Of a stretch of 16,267 nt of DNA, positions 3,023-9,517 are shown piece by piece. Both the position numbers and the translations under genes were made by a program. Source of the DNA: Rubritalea profundi. Lineage in GTDB: Bacteria; Verrucomicrobiota; Verrucomicrobiia; Verrucomicrobiales; Akkermansiaceae. Location: contig NZ_MQWA01000001.1 in NCBI RefSeq assembly GCF_002954445.1, forward strand, positions 2,696,192 to 2,712,458, written 5' to 3'. The notes beneath the pieces are model-generated. The model saw only the letters and a program-made list of their open reading frames with translations, ran no database searches and had not been told where the DNA came from. How positions within the stretch are numbered: position 1 is the first letter of the stretch; each line of letters opens with the position of its first letter.

Positions 3023-3952
3023 ATGTTTAAATTAACTCCTATGATTTATGGAGCCGCCCTGATGGCCGCTCCTATGGCTAGTGCAGATAGTTTCGGAACT
3101 GGGGGCAATGCCTTCACTATGGATTTTGTGAATATTGGAAACGCAGGAAATGTAGGGGACGGCACTGGCTACGGTTCTGTAGACAATAATTTCCGCATGG
3201 GGACGCACGAGGTGAGTGAGTCTATGATCGATTCTTACAATGCATTGAGTGCGGGTCCGGATATAACACAAAGTAACCGTGGAATGGATAGTCCATCAAC
3301 TAATGTGAGTTGGAATGAGGCGGCGCGTTTTGTGAACTGGCTCAACACCAGTTCTGGTCACAGTGCGGCTTACCAGTTCGATATTGCTGGGGGAAATGAT
3401 AATATAGCGCTGTGGGATTCTGGAGATGCCGGCTATGAAGCTAGTAACCGCTTCCGCAACAGCAATGCGCACTACTTCCTGCCGAGTGAGAATGAGATGT
3501 ATAAAGCCGCTTACTACGATCCGAACAAGTCCGGTGGGGCTGGTTACTGGGATTATGCAACAGGCAGTGACACAGCTTCTACTACCACGAGTGGTGGAGT
3601 AGCTGCTGGTACAGCGGTGTACAGTCAGTCAGGCCCCGCAGATGTGACCAAGGCTGGTGGTCTGAGTGCGTATGGCACGATGGGGCAGGGCGGCAATGTC
3701 TGGGAGTGGTCAGAGTCTGGCTATGACGCTTCAAATGACAGCGCAGCTGAGTCGCGCGTTTTCCGCGGGGGTGGCTGGTTCGACTACTCCCTCGCCCTGC
3801 AGTCGTCTACCCGCAACGGCCTCAGCCCGGGCCCTGAGAACAGCGCCATAGGTTTTCGAGTCGCAGCCGTGGCTGCGGTTCCAGAGCCATCGTCAGTGAC
3901 TTTGCTGGTATTAGGTGCCATTAGTCTTCTCATGCGTCGTAAACGTGGATAA
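3023..3952 (+). CDS. DGR variable (target) protein: secreted FGE-sulfatase/C-type-lectin-fold protein with C-terminal VR and PEP-CTERM sorting signal
   Basis: 309 aa with a signal peptide (MFKLTPMIYGAALMAAPMASA|DS). FGE-sulfatase-like motifs: SWNEAARFVNWLN, YFLPSENEMYKAAYY, GNVWEWSESGY, RVFRGGGW...IGFRVA. The C-terminus VPEPSSVTLLVLGAISLLMRRKRG has the PEP motif, a TM helix and a basic tail. The VR lies at codons 241-282. Confidence 0.9.
   Translation: MFKLTPMIYGAALMAAPMASADSFGTGGNAFTMDFVNIGNAGNVGDGTGYGSVDNNFRMGTHEVSESMIDSYNALSAGPDITQSNRGMDSPSTNVSWNEAARFVNWLNTSSGHSAAYQFDIAGGNDNIALWDSGDAGYEASNRFRNSNAHYFLPSENEMYKAAYYDPNKSGGAGYWDYATGSDTASTTTSGGVAAGTAVYSQSGPADVTKAGGLSAYGTMGQGGNVWEWSESGYDASNDSAAESRVFRGGGWFDYSLALQSSTRNGLSPGPENSAIGFRVAAVAAVPEPSSVTLLVLGAISLLMRRKRG
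3743..3866 (+). repeat. DGR variable region (VR)
   Basis: 124-nt ungapped match to 5503-5626 (offset 1760). There are 103 identities and 21 mismatches, and every mismatch sits opposite a TR adenine. Confidence 0.95.
3862..3877 (+). promoter_or_regulatory. GC-rich hairpin/cruciform at the 3' edge of VR (candidate DGR target-recognition element, next to the IMH-like invariant 3847-3866)
   Basis: CGCAGC-CGTG-GCTGCG forms a 6-bp stem with a 4-nt loop. The left arm is the last 5 nt of VR/TR homology. The right arm has no counterpart after the TR, where 5627 onward reads GCTCCAGG. Confidence 0.6.
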
Positions 3953-4035
3953 TATTACCCTTTTCCTCTTTGTCTCTTTTCCCTTTTCTTTAGAAGGGTA
4001 AAAGGGCTGAGGAGAAAGGCGAAATTTTCTGGAAT

Positions 4036-4066
4036 CGTGTCGGCGTAAGCCGGCGCGATTTTTTTT
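4036..4066 (+). terminator. Rho-independent terminator between the target gene and avd
   Basis: CGUGUCGGC-GUAA-GCCGGCGCG forms a 9-bp stem (two G-U pairs) with a GNRA-type loop. After one A comes a run of eight T (4059-4066). It ends 6 nt before the avd ATG. Confidence 0.75.
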
Positions 4067-4072
4067 AGTAAA

Positions 4073-4432
4073 ATGAAGATAGAAAAAGCAAAAGACCAGC
4101 CAGTGGTGCTGGTAAAGTGGTATGACTACACCAAGTGGGTGCTAGACCGTGTGGATGGCTTCCCAAAGAATCAGAGGTTTGTGCTAGGGACTAGGCTCGC
4201 GGATGCCGTGGTGCTGGTGGTCGAGCTGCTAGGAGAGGCTACCTTCTCTGAAAAGGGTAAGAAGCGTGAGCTTCTAGATCAAGCAAACCGTAAAATAGAG
4301 GTGGTGCGCTGGCTCATGCGCTTGGCATTGGATAGAAATCTGGTGAGTAAGAAGCAATTCCTCTTCAGCATCCAATCGCTAGAGGAATGCGGCAGGATGG
4401 TCGGTGGCTGGGCACGCTCAATCAAGCTGTGA
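4073..4432 (+). CDS. avd: DGR accessory variability determinant (Avd-like four-helix-bundle protein)
   Basis: 119 aa, basic and predicted all-helical. Resembles the four-helix-bundle/23S-IVS protein family (KWYDYTKWVLDRVDGFPKNQRFVLGTRL...). Sits immediately upstream of the RT, and its stop overlaps the RT start. Confidence 0.85.
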   Translation: MKIEKAKDQPVVLVKWYDYTKWVLDRVDGFPKNQRFVLGTRLADAVVLVVELLGEATFSEKGKKRELLDQANRKIEVVRWLMRLALDRNLVSKKQFLFSIQSLEECGRMVGGWARSIKL

Positions 4433-5469
4433 AGCGGCATAAACATTTATGGAACCAGGTTGCTAGCCTGAATAATCTAGTGGCTGCCGCACAGGCTGCT
4501 ATGTCAGGAAAGAGGACGGGAGCGAGTGGGGCTGCATTCTCAAATGTGTGGGAGACCGAGGTAGTGAAGCTAGAGCGTGAGCTGCGAACAGGTGAGTACC
4601 GCCCAGGCGAGTACCATTACTTTGAAATCCTAGAGCCTAAGAGGCGAATGATAGCGGCAGCGCCATTTAGAGATAGAGTGGTACATCATGCGCTGGTTAG
4701 GGTGCTAGAGCCGCTGTTTGACCCACGCTTTATCGAGGATAGCTATGCCTGTAGAACGGGCAAAGGAACCCATGCAGGAATGCGGAGAGCTTTATTTTTT
4801 AGTAAGCGCTACGCGTGGGTTCTAAAATGTGATATCCGGAAGTATTTCCCTTCTATCCGGCATGACTTGCTGCTGAGTAAGCTAGAGCGGGTGGTGGGGG
4901 ACAAGCAAGTGCTGAACCTGATAGCGCTGATCGTGGGATCACATTCTGAGACTGTGACCCAGGAATGGCGGAAGAATGGTAATTTATTTGATGTGAAAGC
5001 GGTGCGGTGGGGGCTGCCGATAGGGAACCTAACGAGTCAGTTCTTTGCTAATATCTACATGGATGCATTTGATCACTACGTGAAGCAAGGCATCCGAGTG
5101 AAGGGATATGTGCGCTATGTGGATGATTTCTTGCTGTTTGGAGAAGATAGGGCGGAGCTGCGTAGGATAGGTGAACGCTGCCACAAGTATCTAGAGGGTG
5201 AAGGGCTAGTGATACACCCTGACAAATACAGGATGTGTAGGACGGCTGATGGAGTGGACTTCTGTGGCTTTGTTCTGCGTGCTGATGGGCGTGTGAAGGT
5301 GCGCTCGGCTGGTGTGAGGAGATTTCAGCGAAGACTGAAGCAGATGCGCTACGAGGTGTCTCACGGTGATCTGGGGTGGAAGGAGGTTGGCGTATCCGTG
5401 AGATCATGGATAGCGCATGCCGAGCATGCGCAAAGTTGGCGCTTGCGTAGTAGGATACTGGGAGGCTAG
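4429..5469 (+). CDS. DGR reverse transcriptase (RNA-directed DNA polymerase)
   Basis: RT motifs present: LKCDIRKYFPSI, the DGR-typical LPIGNLTSQFFANIYM (IGxxxSQ), YVRYVDDFLLFG (YxDD), IHPDK and VDFCGF. The N-terminus (V)KRHKHLWNQV matches the usual DGR RT start. The likely GTG start at 4429 overlaps the avd TGA (GTGA). The longest ORF begins at 4387. Confidence 0.92.
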   Translation: MKRHKHLWNQVASLNNLVAAAQAAMSGKRTGASGAAFSNVWETEVVKLERELRTGEYRPGEYHYFEILEPKRRMIAAAPFRDRVVHHALVRVLEPLFDPRFIEDSYACRTGKGTHAGMRRALFFSKRYAWVLKCDIRKYFPSIRHDLLLSKLERVVGDKQVLNLIALIVGSHSETVTQEWRKNGNLFDVKAVRWGLPIGNLTSQFFANIYMDAFDHYVKQGIRVKGYVRYVDDFLLFGEDRAELRRIGERCHKYLEGEGLVIHPDKYRMCRTADGVDFCGFVLRADGRVKVRSAGVRRFQRRLKQMRYEVSHGDLGWKEVGVSVRSWIAHAEHAQSWRLRSRILGG

Positions 5470-5502: not shown

Positions 5503-5626
5503 GCAGCTGAGTCGCGCGTTATCCGCGGGGGTAACTGGAACAACAACTCCAACAACCTGCAGTCGTCTAACCGCAACAACAACAGCCCGGGCAATGAGAA
5601 CAACAACATAGGTTTTCGAGTCGCAG
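5503..5626 (+). repeat. DGR template region (TR)
   Basis: Starts 33 nt after the RT stop and contains 38 adenines. Read in VR register it holds 13 AAC and 1 AAT codons (...GG N W N N N S N N LQSS N R N N N SPG N E N N N IGFRVA). It is the invariant partner of the VR. Confidence 0.95.
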
Positions 5627-5826
5627 GCTCCAGGATAGAGATACCTCCTAAAAGAGTGACTCTAGCTGAGCTCATGTTCACGGTGAGAACCGTAGTGGAC
5701 AAGTGTCTCTACGGCAGTGCCGCGCTCTGGAACCACCGGTAGCCCCAGAGCTGGGATGGGTAACCATTCTAGGTCAAATAAGAATAGGAAAAGGTATTGC
5801 GGTGAGTAAGCGATAAGCTGAAAGCC

Positions 5827-6066
5827 GTGATGCTTAGTGAATGTGAGAATTTTAAGATAGATATGAATGAGTCTGGAGGAAATGAGCGGTCAGAGAGCGA
5901 GGTGACTCGCCGGAGGCGCAGTAAGAGTGATAATCATAGTCAAGAGGATCAGTCTGAAATACGAGGTTGTGCTGTCGCGATTCTTGTGGTGGTGGCTCTG
6001 GTGTTAGGGGGAACTATATGCTATCTGGAGGCGAGGAGGAAGTGGTTGCCGATAGGCAAGTGGTAG
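5827..6066 (+). CDS. Hypothetical N-terminal fragment with one TM helix (probably the 5' part of the next ORF)
   Basis: 79-aa ORF with a charged N-terminus followed by the hydrophobic segment CAVAILVVVALVLGG. It overlaps the next ORF by 100 nt in another frame, with a GGGGG run at 6006-6010. Confidence 0.35.
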   Translation: MMLSECENFKIDMNESGGNERSESEVTRRRRSKSDNHSQEDQSEIRGCAVAILVVVALVLGGTICYLEARRKWLPIGKW

Positions 6067-6704
6067 CGTCGGCGATTGTTCAAAAAGAACCGAACGCTGA
6101 AGAGGTAGCGAGAGCATTTATCGCCGAGATAAATGTGGAGAAACGGCTGACAATGGTACGAAATAGGGAAGTGGTGAAAACGCATCTAAGCAGTTATACG
6201 GAAGAGGCGCTTAAAGAACCAGGTGTGGAGATCCGAGAAATGATGCGCAGGACTTTTGGAGACAAAGAGAGGACGTCTTATGCTGTGAGTTTTACCAGCG
6301 GTAGTCTACGGCTGCTCAATGTGCTAGAGACTGATGAGGGACCTAAGGTGGACTGGGATAGCTACGCACGCTACTGCTCTGTTAGCTGGGACACCCTAAC
6401 CAACGGGGAAAGTGTTGATCCAGCTCTCGTGCGGGTTTTTGTGCGACCAGGGAGTCATTACGCAGGTGAATACCTGGATCAAAAGAAGTGGCTGTGCTTC
6501 CAGCTAGAAACACCCGACTGTGGCGAGACTCTCTATGCCTACGGAAAAGTAGGTGAAGAAAATGCCGAGAAAATGAAGGAGATTGTGCTGCGAGCTAAGA
6601 ACTATCGACAGCACATGACTCTGGAGCTGGAGGCTAAGGGAAAGCTAGATGGCGCATGTCTGTTCGAGGTGAAGAGGCTTGTGACTGTTGGCTGGGTGGA
6701 GTAG
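6018..6704 (+). CDS. Hypothetical protein (no family recognised) adjacent to the DGR
   Basis: Long open frame (5967-6704 in the track, first ATG at 6018). Its CTA-Leu/AGR-Arg codon style matches avd and RT. Confidence 0.6.
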   Translation: MLSGGEEEVVADRQVVASAIVQKEPNAEEVARAFIAEINVEKRLTMVRNREVVKTHLSSYTEEALKEPGVEIREMMRRTFGDKERTSYAVSFTSGSLRLLNVLETDEGPKVDWDSYARYCSVSWDTLTNGESVDPALVRVFVRPGSHYAGEYLDQKKWLCFQLETPDCGETLYAYGKVGEENAEKMKEIVLRAKNYRQHMTLELEAKGKLDGACLFEVKRLVTVGWVE

Positions 6705-6726
6705 CGGCGTCATGGATGACCGTAGA

Positions 6727-8313
6727 TCAACCGTGAGTGGGATGGGGCAGCTTATGGCTATCTAGCTCGATGACATCTTCCGCAAATTGGATGCCAGCCT
6801 GGGATTTTAGGCTCCACGCTTTGTCGATCCCTGCCGATTCTAAGGCTTGAGCTTGGTCGTCATAATCGGAAACTGCAAATCGTACAGCCCCCAGATGCTG
6901 GCTGAGTTTCGTAACCGCGATATTGGTTTCGTGGTCATGCATCGCCAATAGGAGCATTCTCACATTCCCTAGTGACAGGCGATGCCAGAATTCTTCATTC
7001 GTCGCGTCAGCTAGAATTACTTTGCGGTCGTTCTCTCTGTGCCCAGAGACAACAGACGAGTCAGTATCGACGCCCACTATAACCTCGCCAAATTCCTTAA
7101 CGAGCGTGTCGTAGGCTCCACAGCCAATGCTGGCCATGCCGATGATGACGATCTGAGTGGCGGTTGGTACGACAGCAGAATCCTCCTGTAGAATGTTATC
7201 AGATTGGTGGCTGTCGAACTTTGTTTTGTATCGGCTATAGATGGCGCGAGCGTGGTTGTTGAGTGGGGATGCGGCAATAAATGTGAAGGTGAGTGCCAGT
7301 GCTATAACCACCACCCAATCTCCGCTGAGCCATTGGTTGGCTAGGGCCACGGAAGCCACGATTAGGCCAAACTCACTGAAGTTTGCTAAATTGAACGAAC
7401 TCAGCACTGCCGTACGGGAGCGAAGCCTCAACTTGGTAAATAGCCAGAAGAATAGGACTACCTTCAGGACTGCTGCGAGGGCGAGTACGCTAGCTGTTAG
7501 GACTGTAGCGGTAGTGATCGAGCCAGACATGCCGATGCTCAAGAAGAAGCCGACAAGTAAGAGTTCCTTGAAGCTCAATAGCTTTTTAGCCATCGAGTTG
7601 GCAGAGGGGTGAGCCGCAAGCATTGCTCCAAAGATCAGCGCTCCAAGGTCTCCTTTCACACTGACTAACTCAAAGAGAAAGGCTCCGCCAAAGGCTATGC
7701 TTAGACCGAGTAGAGCCATCAGCTCACCATGGCCGACATCGCTCATAACTCGGAGCAGGAATCGACGCAATGGGATAAGTAAAATCAAAGCCAGCGCCCA
7801 CGGTGACGGCGCTTTACCTGTCGAAAGGGCAAGAAATAGGATAGCGAAGATATCCTGCATGACCAGTACGCCAATGGCGATCTGACCATGGCGGGAGCAC
7901 ATTTCTCCTTTTTCTTCCAAGGTCTTGATTGCAAAGACTGTACTGGAAAAACTCAGAGCAAAGGCGATCAGAATGGCTGTGGTGAAGCCTACGTCGACGA
8001 GCAGAGCAACACCTGTGAAGCTCATGCAGAAAATTGCGAGGCCAAACAGAGCCACCGTGACAAGCATGTGTAGTGAGGTTCCCGCCCAAATCACGGGTTT
8101 TAGCAAGGAACGAACATCGAGTTTGAGCCCGATGGAAAACAACAGGAGTGTCACACCCATGTTGCCGATGCTTGCTAGGTTCACGCTGTTGCCATCGACG
8201 AATAGATTTAGCAAGAAACCGCCCGCTAGGTAGCCAATCATCGGTGGTAGGCCGAAGCGGGTGGCGACCAAACCAAAAATGAGGGCTGGGCCGATCCAGG
8301 CTAAATCATTCAT
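6727..8313 (-). CDS. CPA2-family cation:proton antiporter with C-terminal TrkA-N/RCK domain (KefB/YbaL-like)
   Basis: Multi-TM Na+/H+-exchanger-like region followed by the Rossmann motif IVIIGMASIGCGAYDTL. The ORF is open to 8406. Starting at 8313 (MNDLAWIGPALIFG) avoids a 59-nt overlap with the upstream gene. Confidence 0.85.
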   Translation of the reverse strand: MNDLAWIGPALIFGLVATRFGLPPMIGYLAGGFLLNLFVDGNSVNLASIGNMGVTLLLFSIGLKLDVRSLLKPVIWAGTSLHMLVTVALFGLAIFCMSFTGVALLVDVGFTTAILIAFALSFSSTVFAIKTLEEKGEMCSRHGQIAIGVLVMQDIFAILFLALSTGKAPSPWALALILLIPLRRFLLRVMSDVGHGELMALLGLSIAFGGAFLFELVSVKGDLGALIFGAMLAAHPSANSMAKKLLSFKELLLVGFFLSIGMSGSITTATVLTASVLALAAVLKVVLFFWLFTKLRLRSRTAVLSSFNLANFSEFGLIVASVALANQWLSGDWVVVIALALTFTFIAASPLNNHARAIYSRYKTKFDSHQSDNILQEDSAVVPTATQIVIIGMASIGCGAYDTLVKEFGEVIVGVDTDSSVVSGHRENDRKVILADATNEEFWHRLSLGNVRMLLLAMHDHETNIAVTKLSQHLGAVRFAVSDYDDQAQALESAGIDKAWSLKSQAGIQFAEDVIELDSHKLPHPTHG

Positions 8314-8347: not shown

Positions 8348-9517
8348 TTAGCGAATGTTCGCTTTGGCCATTTCGTCGATAAGGACGTCGCGGAGTTCTT
8401 GCTCATCGAGGCCTCCAGTTTTACGCCAGACTACTGTGCCTCCTGGGGCAATGAGCAGAGTGTGCGGGATAGGGCCTTGCCATTTTGGATCGATCGCATT
8501 GGCCAGAGCTTCGAGGTCACCACCACGGTAATGGAAGTTGTTGGTCTTGCGTCCTTCTTTTTCCACAGATTTCTTGGTCCATCTGGCGAGTGGGAGGTGT
8601 TGTTCCTTGATGAAGCTTGAAACTGAATCCGCATCTTTCTTAGGATCAATCGAGATAGTGATGAGTTCAAACGGACGCAGAGAATGGCGTTGGTAGGTTT
8701 CTACCAGCATTGGAAACTCAGCGACACAAGGACCACAGCTGGTCGACCAGAGATTGATGAGGCGCATTTTTCCAGTGTCGTTTTTAGCGAGCTTCGTGGC
8801 GAGTTCTACATCGATAGCTTCAACGGAGATTGGAAGGGCATTCCATTGCTTATTGTATTGATCGACGAGTTCAGACTTTCCCTTCCACTTAGTGGAGCAA
8901 CCGAAGACGCGGGTCTTAGCTTCAGGAACGGGCTTTCCTGCTAGAAGTGCATCCATCGTATTGAGGACGGTTTTCTTTTTCGCTGGACCTGGGTCGCGCT
9001 TGGCGTCGTCAAAATGTCCTTGGTAGAGGAGCTTTCTCTCGGGACCGAAGATGAAGACGTGGGGTGTGGCGACTGCTCCGTAGGCGATTGAGGCCGTCTG
9101 ATTTTCGCCGTCGTAGAGGTAAGGGTGTGACAGCTCGTATTCTTTTGCCACGGCTTTCATTGATTTAAAGTCGTCGTTGTACTTTGAGTAGGCATTCTCC
9201 CAGATCTGGACGCCGGCCATCGACGCGCTGGAGATTGCTACGACCTCGACTCCTTTATCCGCGTAGTCTTTTGCGAACTGGTTGACCTTACCACGCGCAG
9301 CTATGGCGTCAGGGCAGTGATTGCAGGTAAAGACAGCGACAAGGTACTTAGCATCTTTAAAGGAGTTGAGTGTGTAGATTTTGCCATCGGTGGCTGGGAG
9401 TGAGAAATCCGGGGCTGATGCGCCGATTTCTAATGTGGTCACATTCTGAGGTGCCGCAGTGGCTGAAAATGTGAGACTAGCTACCGCGATTATTGCGGTG
9501 AGTGGTTTGGTGATCAT
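8348..9517 (-). CDS. Secreted two-domain thioredoxin-fold protein (AhpC/TSA-redoxin domain plus TlpA-like domain)
   Basis: 389 aa with a signal peptide (MITKPLTAIIAVASLTFSATAAP). Two CxxC centres are present: FTCNHCPD and WSTSCGPCVAEFP. Confidence 0.8.
   Translation of the reverse strand: MITKPLTAIIAVASLTFSATAAPQNVTTLEIGASAPDFSLPATDGKIYTLNSFKDAKYLVAVFTCNHCPDAIAARGKVNQFAKDYADKGVEVVAISSASMAGVQIWENAYSKYNDDFKSMKAVAKEYELSHPYLYDGENQTASIAYGAVATPHVFIFGPERKLLYQGHFDDAKRDPGPAKKKTVLNTMDALLAGKPVPEAKTRVFGCSTKWKGKSELVDQYNKQWNALPISVEAIDVELATKLAKNDTGKMRLINLWSTSCGPCVAEFPMLVETYQRHSLRPFELITISIDPKKDADSVSSFIKEQHLPLARWTKKSVEKEGRKTNNFHYRGGDLEALANAIDPKWQGPIPHTLLIAPGGTVVWRKTGGLDEQELRDVLIDEMAKANIR

Follow-up and report, generated by a model that had tools for sequence, protein, structure and literature searches.

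To our knowledge, the destination and the ligands of the cellular targets of diversity-generating retroelements (DGRs) are mostly unknown. The variable repeat (VR) of a DGR is argued to lie at the C-terminus of its target so that cis elements can be intergenic (Roux 2021), and those passages of Wu 2018 that deal with target position assign internal VRs almost solely to immunoglobulin (Ig)-type targets. Its passages on cis elements report a GC-rich hairpin shortly downstream of the VR in a minority (34%) of DGRs, while Guo et al. place GC hairpins 4–34 bp past the VR, with function declining as the spacer lengthens. Of PEP-CTERM proteins, the part of the literature on which we draw reports that exosortases move them to the cell exterior; in Akkermansia muciniphila, an EpsH-like gene is reported alongside 23 PEP-CTERM proteins, nine of which were detected by mass spectrometry (PMC4960237). 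Here we describe a chromosomal DGR of Rubritalea profundi whose target, a lectin-fold protein, carries a PEP-CTERM tail directly behind its VR. The DNA analysed, hereafter the window, is a stretch of 16,267 nt (GCF_002954445.1, NZ_MQWA01000001.1, positions 2,696,192–2,712,458, forward strand).

The cassette runs in the order target, avd, reverse transcriptase (RT) and template repeat (TR), with all features on the + strand. An earlier reading of the bare sequence (the original prediction) had proposed a target gene at 3023–3952 with its VR at codons 241–282, and both are indeed found there. The open reading frame (ORF) encodes 309 aa, or 303 aa in the database gene call, which starts from M7. 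A direct repeat of 124 nt with 83% identity links positions 3743–3866, at these codons, to positions 5503–5626, and all 21 mismatches between the copies fall at adenines of the downstream copy, every one at codon position 1 or 2. This identifies the downstream copy as the TR and the upstream copy as the VR. With 38 adenines and 14 AAY codons, the TR has the capacity to generate at least 10^16 protein variants. The accessory variability determinant (Avd) encoded at 4073–4432 (119 aa) exceeds the curated models NF033474 DivGenRetAVD (81.9 bits against a cut-off of 80) and Pfam bAvd (53.5 bits against 40). The RT encoded at 4387–5469 (360 aa) matches RVT_1 with 90 bits, bears the DGR motifs IGNLTSQ at residue 212 and YVDD at residue 244, and is 65% identical to the DGR RT of Haloferula sp. 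A504. A scan of the window with Rfam returned zero matches.

A sister strain was found through the 90% cluster of the target, as contigs from ENA/Tara Oceans assemblies (L081–L084; labels of this form denote the loci that we collected). The gene order is the same, and the two sequences are 99.68% identical over 13.9 kb. Of 45 differences in total, 27 lie inside the 124-nt VR, with 25 of these at TR-adenine positions, and the other 18 are spread over the remaining ~13.8 kb, which is 99.9% identical. Neither the TR nor the segment encoding the PEP-CTERM tail differs at any position. Differences so concentrated in the VR, and at positions templated by adenines, point to mutagenic retrohoming since the strains diverged; on this population evidence the DGR is active in nature. 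The turnover also shows that homing works although the VR lies 86 nt upstream of the stop codon. Elsewhere between the two strains, single-nucleotide indels alter the C-terminus of a fumarase (1424), the N-terminus of the target (3040) and rpsN (9917), and a T/A difference at 9001 fuses two redoxin genes into one ORF of 389 aa. These differences in the window are either sequencing errors or real pseudogenisation.

The body of the target protein matches Pfam FGE-sulfatase PF03781 at 61.2 bits (threshold 23.3; residues 84–281). Based on 33 aligned homologues, an AlphaFold2 model attains moderate quality (predicted local distance difference test, pLDDT, 70.6; predicted template modelling score, pTM, 0.75), with low confidence in the VR. 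Compared with the PDB by Foldseek, its best match is Treponema denticola TvpA (2Y3C, E 1.8e-8), followed by CarF, PvdO and formylglycine-generating enzymes (FGEs). The model thus bears out the FGE-sulfatase-type C-type-lectin (CLec) fold of the TvpA class that had been proposed for this protein. At the N-terminus, the target begins with MFKLTPMIYGAALMAAPMASA followed by DSFG (nucleotides 3023–3085 up to the putative cleavage site A-S-A|D). Read by eye, this segment contains an n-region with lysine, a hydrophobic core and an A-x-A site, and no lipobox cysteine. Every member of the family alignment has an N-terminal hydrophobic segment that ends in A-x-A before a conserved D/E-[TS]-F-G. The segment therefore looks like a Sec signal peptide, as predicted from the sequence and the family alignment.

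At the other end, the order of elements after GFRVA is exactly as the original prediction described it: the linker A282-V-A-A285, then V286-P-E-P289, a hydrophobic stretch (SSVTLLVLGAISLLM) and RRKRG, the signal from VPEP onwards being encoded at 3878–3949. Tested with hidden Markov models (HMMs), as had been suggested, the final 24 residues exceed both PEP-CTERM models. The target reaches 22.4 bits with Pfam PF07589 (gathering score 20.7) and 19.3 bits with TIGR02595 (cut-off 16), and the tail alone reaches 26 bits with the latter. Among the 33 aligned homologues, the P-E-P motif is unchanged in all 33, and the hydrophobic residues of the helix vary, so the tail is more than a chance resemblance. 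Described DGR targets mostly have their VR at the extreme C-terminus, as had been assumed and as Roux 2021 and the target-position passages of Wu 2018 agree. The proposed neighbourhood of the hypervariable face and the sorting signal is found in the sequence, where the AVAA linker alone separates them, and it is an adjacency of sequence alone. The last strand of CLec folds (GFRV) goes back to the core, and by this analogy the tail probably emerges pointing away from the variable face.

The original prediction treated this architecture as a single case, and here the databases correct it, as the architecture is the norm for a large family of the Planctomycetes–Verrucomicrobia–Chlamydiae (PVC) bacteria. 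The target has more than 6,000 relatives in databases. Of the 120 closest homologues, 108 have the ending GFRV-A[AS]-(0-8 aa)-[VI]PEP-helix-RRKR, and a PEP-CTERM tail is present in 62 of 79 genomic copies from species-representative genomes of Verrucomicrobiota, Planctomycetota and Kiritimatiellota. An exhaustive profile search gave 1,922 clusters at 50% identity (E<=1e-30), and among the best 150 of their representatives 67 have a PEP-CTERM-like ending. The family ranges over the Akkermansiaceae, Rubritalea marina, Prosthecobacter and Chthoniobacterales within Verrucomicrobiota, over Planctomycetota and Kiritimatiellota, and into a few metagenome-assembled genomes (MAGs) of Cyanobacteriota. 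The hypervariable columns of the 33-homologue alignment coincide with the AAC-templated codons of the window. The Pfam PEP-CTERM model flags only about a tenth of the members, which may explain why the family is absent from domain-based surveys. We found no NCBIfam model that covers the whole target protein, and no PEP-CTERM subfamily that spans the lectin domain.

Other arrangements of the lectin domain were also seen. Tandem arrays of PEP-CTERM lectin paralogues occur on contigs without an RT, five genes in L086 (6792–11646) and four in L014 (5150–10882); identity among the VR regions of an array is below 70%, and the paralogues therefore share no recent TR. On IMG/VR contigs of up to 170 kb that are classed as viral (L172–L200), large proteins contain tandem copies of the lectin domain, in which GFRV runs straight into the next copy and the PEP tail is absent.

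We consider it likely that the active DGR diversifies a Sec-exported lectin-fold protein, which an exosortase then sorts to the cell surface or the exopolysaccharide. In the diversification, TR RNA undergoes reverse transcription in which bases are placed at random opposite adenines, and the VR is replaced by the resulting cDNA. About 15 codons (14 of them AAY) are thereby recoded within the last 40 residues of the C-type-lectin/FGE-fold domain, at its presumed ligand-binding surface. For the sorting, the protein would be exported by Sec and would stay tethered to the inner membrane through its C-terminal helix, RRKRG facing the cytoplasm. Exosortase would recognise VPEP, take off the helix and hand the lectin domain to the cell surface or the exopolysaccharide layer, where it could act as a variable adhesin or ligand receptor. 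The data show the DGR anatomy, the adenine mutagenesis, the activity in nature, the fold, the match of the tail to the PEP-CTERM models and its conservation across the family; the Sec export, the exosortase cleavage, the final location and the ligand we infer from sequence features.

Several points weigh against this mechanism. First, the window contains no exosortase, and none was found among 28 multi-pass membrane ORFs scanned from the flanks of loci L001–L167. These ORFs, drawn by filtering from two overlapping lists of 25 and 35, are transporters, UbiA, TauE, a CPBP protease and similar proteins. Second, the target passes PF07589 by a narrow margin, and four of seven other DGR-linked tails fall below its gathering score (L087, 13.5 bits; L094, 14.1; L001, 14.4; L092, no match). 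Third, in most members VPEP lies only 0–4 residues past the last strand of the fold, which leaves scant access for a protease. Fourth, the N-terminus of the sister-strain protein is shortened, since T3040 is absent there, and its start must therefore be M7. Lastly, we know of little experimental documentation of how bacterial PEP-CTERM proteins are processed or where they finally reside.

Some of these observations favour the main rival, in which the tail is a plain C-terminal anchor in the inner membrane, the lectin domain stays periplasmic and uncleaved, and the likeness to PEP-CTERM is superficial or vestigial. The lack of an exosortase among the ORFs scanned, the marginal or sub-threshold HMM scores of several members and the very short linker between fold and PEP speak for such an anchor. 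A plain anchor has no need of P-E-P, however, and the invariance of this motif beside a variable helix argues against it. In addition, two independent curated models are exceeded, and the DNA of relatives, including Haloferula (L087), encodes alongside many other PEP-CTERM-like proteins (23 ORFs in the flanks), in keeping with a PEP-CTERM system known in Akkermansiaceae. We therefore regard the plain anchor as unlikely, and prefer sorting by exosortase.

It is very improbable that the locus is a phage or prophage element with the target as a receptor-binding protein, as in BPP-1. Members with both an RT and a PEP tail do occur on IMG/VR contigs classed as viral (L168–L170), but the flanks of the window hold housekeeping genes (fumarase, M23 peptidase, K+/H+ antiporter, rpsN and DEAD-box helicase) and no phage genes, and synteny is kept in the sister strain. 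A predicted signal peptide combined with a PEP-CTERM tail also fits a cellular envelope protein. Hardly any credence can be given to the idea that the target is an enzyme of the SUMF1/EgtB/PvdO family merely anchored by its tail, even though its homologues are named 'SUMF1/EgtB/PvdO family nonheme iron enzyme' or 'formylglycine-generating enzyme' in public databases (NCBI, JGI) and the Pfam FGE-sulfatase model matches. FGE enzymes have a conserved copper-binding pair of cysteines. The target protein contains no cysteine at all and so cannot hold the FGE copper site; the DGR hypermutates the C-terminal portion of the domain, the closest match by structure is TvpA, a variable protein that is not an enzyme, and the EgtB, SenA and GldK models score far under their cut-offs. 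Judged by its lack of cysteine, the target is a binding protein, and the enzyme name is wrong for the window protein, to which we confine this statement. Nor is the DGR at all likely to be a fossil, its VR/TR likeness a relic in a protein that no longer varies: most genomic family members do lack an RT within 10 kb and some retain only Avd remnants, but avd, RT and TR are intact here, and the VR of the sister strain, with its adenine-directed changes beside an unchanged TR, already contradicts it.

We compared the presence of the tail with the identity of the RT to that of the window. Among DGRs whose RT is at least 50% identical to that of the window, every one that could be evaluated has a PEP-CTERM target and an adenine-biased VR/TR pair (Haloferula sp. 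A504, L087; metagenomic loci L088, L090, L092, L094/95 and L096/97). A search with the target protein, separate from the RT-centred search, recovered three more loci from IMG/VR (L168–L170) with a PEP-CTERM target, an RT and an adenine-biased TR. The 33 targets that belong to RTs of 39–47% identity have the classical layout and end at most 6 aa after GFRC. On the loci compared, the tail architecture characterises one RT sub-clade together with a large PVC target family.

Most genomic copies of the target have no RT or TR within 10 kb. A search beside 80 genomic homologues detected no TR-like repeat at 70% identity or more, with a positive control on the window that worked. The RT-less copies often bear a footprint of adenine mutagenesis in the form of NNC codons. 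C is the third base of 72% of the codons at sites homologous to the 13 AAC codons, and of 46% of the codons for the same amino acids at other sites of those genes; for Leu, Val and Ala the values are 70–77% and 23–28%, respectively. Only 5% of the residues at these positions could not be encoded by NNC, and the footprint is individually significant (P<1e-3) in 28 of 79 RT-less copies. Such copies may either have lost their DGR recently or be targets of a remote DGR that diversifies them in trans. Avd-like remnants were seen 3' of PEP-CTERM targets at three loci where no RT was detected (L006, 6639–6749; L007, 1951–2031; L012, 11140–11421). Loss of the DGR therefore does happen, and the remnants suggest decay of DGRs beside retained targets. 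In Haloferula sp. A504, the DGR has no detectable Avd, and genes for GIY-YIG, DUF7387 and HicA proteins lie between target and RT (L087, 11088–11850).

The tail also bears on the cis elements of homing. A pyrimidine-rich spacer of the CCCTTT type follows the stop codon of the window target (3953–3991, +), and the same module is present in related DGRs. Further downstream, beginning 79 nt past the stop codon, is a terminator-like hairpin with a T-run (4031–4062, +; 14 pairs, 7 of them G-C, a 4-nt loop and a T8 tail), which is possibly a displaced DGR hairpin. In the classical relatives (L100–L167), a CCCTTT-rich spacer and a GC hairpin of 6–11 bp lie 30–55 nt after the VR. In loci of the PEP-CTERM type (L087, L090, L094 and L096), the spacer and a GC hairpin, often with a GAA loop, lie 38–44 nt past the stop codon, which places the module over 120 nt from the VR. 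By its position, the segment that encodes the tail looks like an insertion between the VR and an old downstream module. That module may serve either in homing or in termination only. A more speculative possibility is that this clade recognises its target site in a manner unlike BPP-1, because the spacer and hairpin are set off from the VR by some 85 nt of coding DNA. An inverted repeat, CGCAGC-CGTG-GCTGCG, straddles the boundary of VR/TR homology (3860–3875, +) and encodes the extra A-V-A-A linker. We rejected this 6-bp stem as a DGR cruciform: its folding energy of -6.8 kcal/mol is not significant (z -1.57; 17 of 200 shuffled sequences fold equally well), and it is not conserved in Haloferula (L087).

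Beyond the cassette, comparison of homologues points to a conserved neighbour, orf291 (5830–6704, +), as a single-pass membrane protein with two NTF2-like domains. In the window the gene is broken at 6006 by a difference in the length of a G-run (G5 versus G6). The family comprises proteins of ~290 aa in 31 clusters, and all clusters with a named source come from Verrucomicrobiales/Akkermansiaceae. A structural model (pLDDT 87.7) predicts two NTF2/cystatin-like domains; no Pfam or NCBIfam family matched, and no PDB match was found below E 1e-3. Homologues adjoin PEP-CTERM CLec genes in L001, L002, L004, L027, L086 and L087. Because orf291 adjoins lectin genes with or without an RT, it is tied to the target and not to the DGR. 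In L092, a CPBP/Rce1-like intramembrane protease (5673–6467) is encoded directly upstream of the DGR target (6696–7532), whose tail, beginning VPEPCS, has no Pfam PEP-CTERM match. Both TIGR03008 pepcterm_CAAX and the MrtJ/MrtS C-terminal-signal proteases match this protease below threshold; it may be an enzyme dedicated to sorting, or its position may be coincidental.

In the literature that we searched, we found nothing that joins PEP-CTERM with DGRs or, among the matches listed, with FGE-sulfatase or CLec domains. No mention of PEP-CTERM was found in the text of Roux 2021 or in the 15 supplements searched; for Wu 2018, the search of the main text covered only terms for target position and cis elements, and was not aimed directly at PEP-CTERM or exosortase. 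The parts of the locus are known ones, a standard DGR mechanism and a standard sorting signal. What is new is that the two are combined, how widely this is so, and that the combination goes with one RT clade. A more far-reaching possibility, which we put forward tentatively and with considerable doubt, is that PVC bacteria harbour a dedicated and ancient pairing of a DGR clade with exosortase, in which lectins are covalently passed to the surface or the exopolysaccharide and RT-less NNC copies are diversified in trans. If this were true, each PVC lineage would possess a reprogrammable coat of adhesins or receptors. With this family, a concrete and testable route of export would be at hand for the DGR targets found in Verrucomicrobiota and Planctomycetota, and the exosortase field would gain a candidate substrate with a naturally randomised binding face. 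Among CLec1 targets, it forms a recurrent exception to the rule of the extreme C-terminal VR as given by Roux 2021 and by the target-position passages of Wu 2018.

Set beside the known systems, the window target is most readily compared with TvpA of T. denticola (2Y3C; category 'b', CLec1, in Wu 2018), with which it shares the FGE-sulfatase-type C-type-lectin fold. In both proteins the final ~40 residues of the fold are encoded by the VR, with G-F-R at their end; the TR is rich in AAC and the DGR is cellular. The VR is C-terminal in TvpA and, in the target-position passages of Wu 2018, in the 71 category-b targets surveyed, whereas the window target continues past its VR for 28 further codons that include the PEP-CTERM signal, and its identity to TvpA is just 23%. 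LdtA of Legionella pneumophila, in the part of its description on which we draw, is a cellular DGR target on the outer membrane with its variable C-terminal domain exposed, a display to which that inferred for the window protein may be likened. LdtA, however, is of the CLec2/DUF1566 class and is held by an N-terminal lipoprotein anchor; the window target has no lipobox and bears a C-terminal sorting signal instead.

The tail itself conforms to the PEP-CTERM system (Haft 2006, 2012; TIGR02595, PF07589), which likewise combines a PEP motif, a transmembrane (TM) helix and an Arg/Lys cluster with a signal peptide, the latter predicted in the window target. The system is present in Verrucomicrobia, the group in which its signal was originally recognised, and its examples include proteins of A. 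muciniphila and the floc protein PepA. The window tail also matches the tails of the PepA and XDP1 families, although in the literature searched we found no known PEP-CTERM protein described as a DGR target. With the Mtd DGR of BPP-1, finally, the locus has in common the TR-to-VR adenine mutagenesis, the pair of Avd and RT, and a homology that ends at a constant segment resembling the initiation of mutagenic homing (IMH) element. BPP-1 requires a GC hairpin 4 bp past its VR, and longer spacers lower homing, whereas in the window type a comparable GC hairpin and spacer module lies beyond the stop codon, over 120 nt past the VR. Comparing where the hairpins lie offers a natural experiment on how far the cis elements of a DGR can shift.

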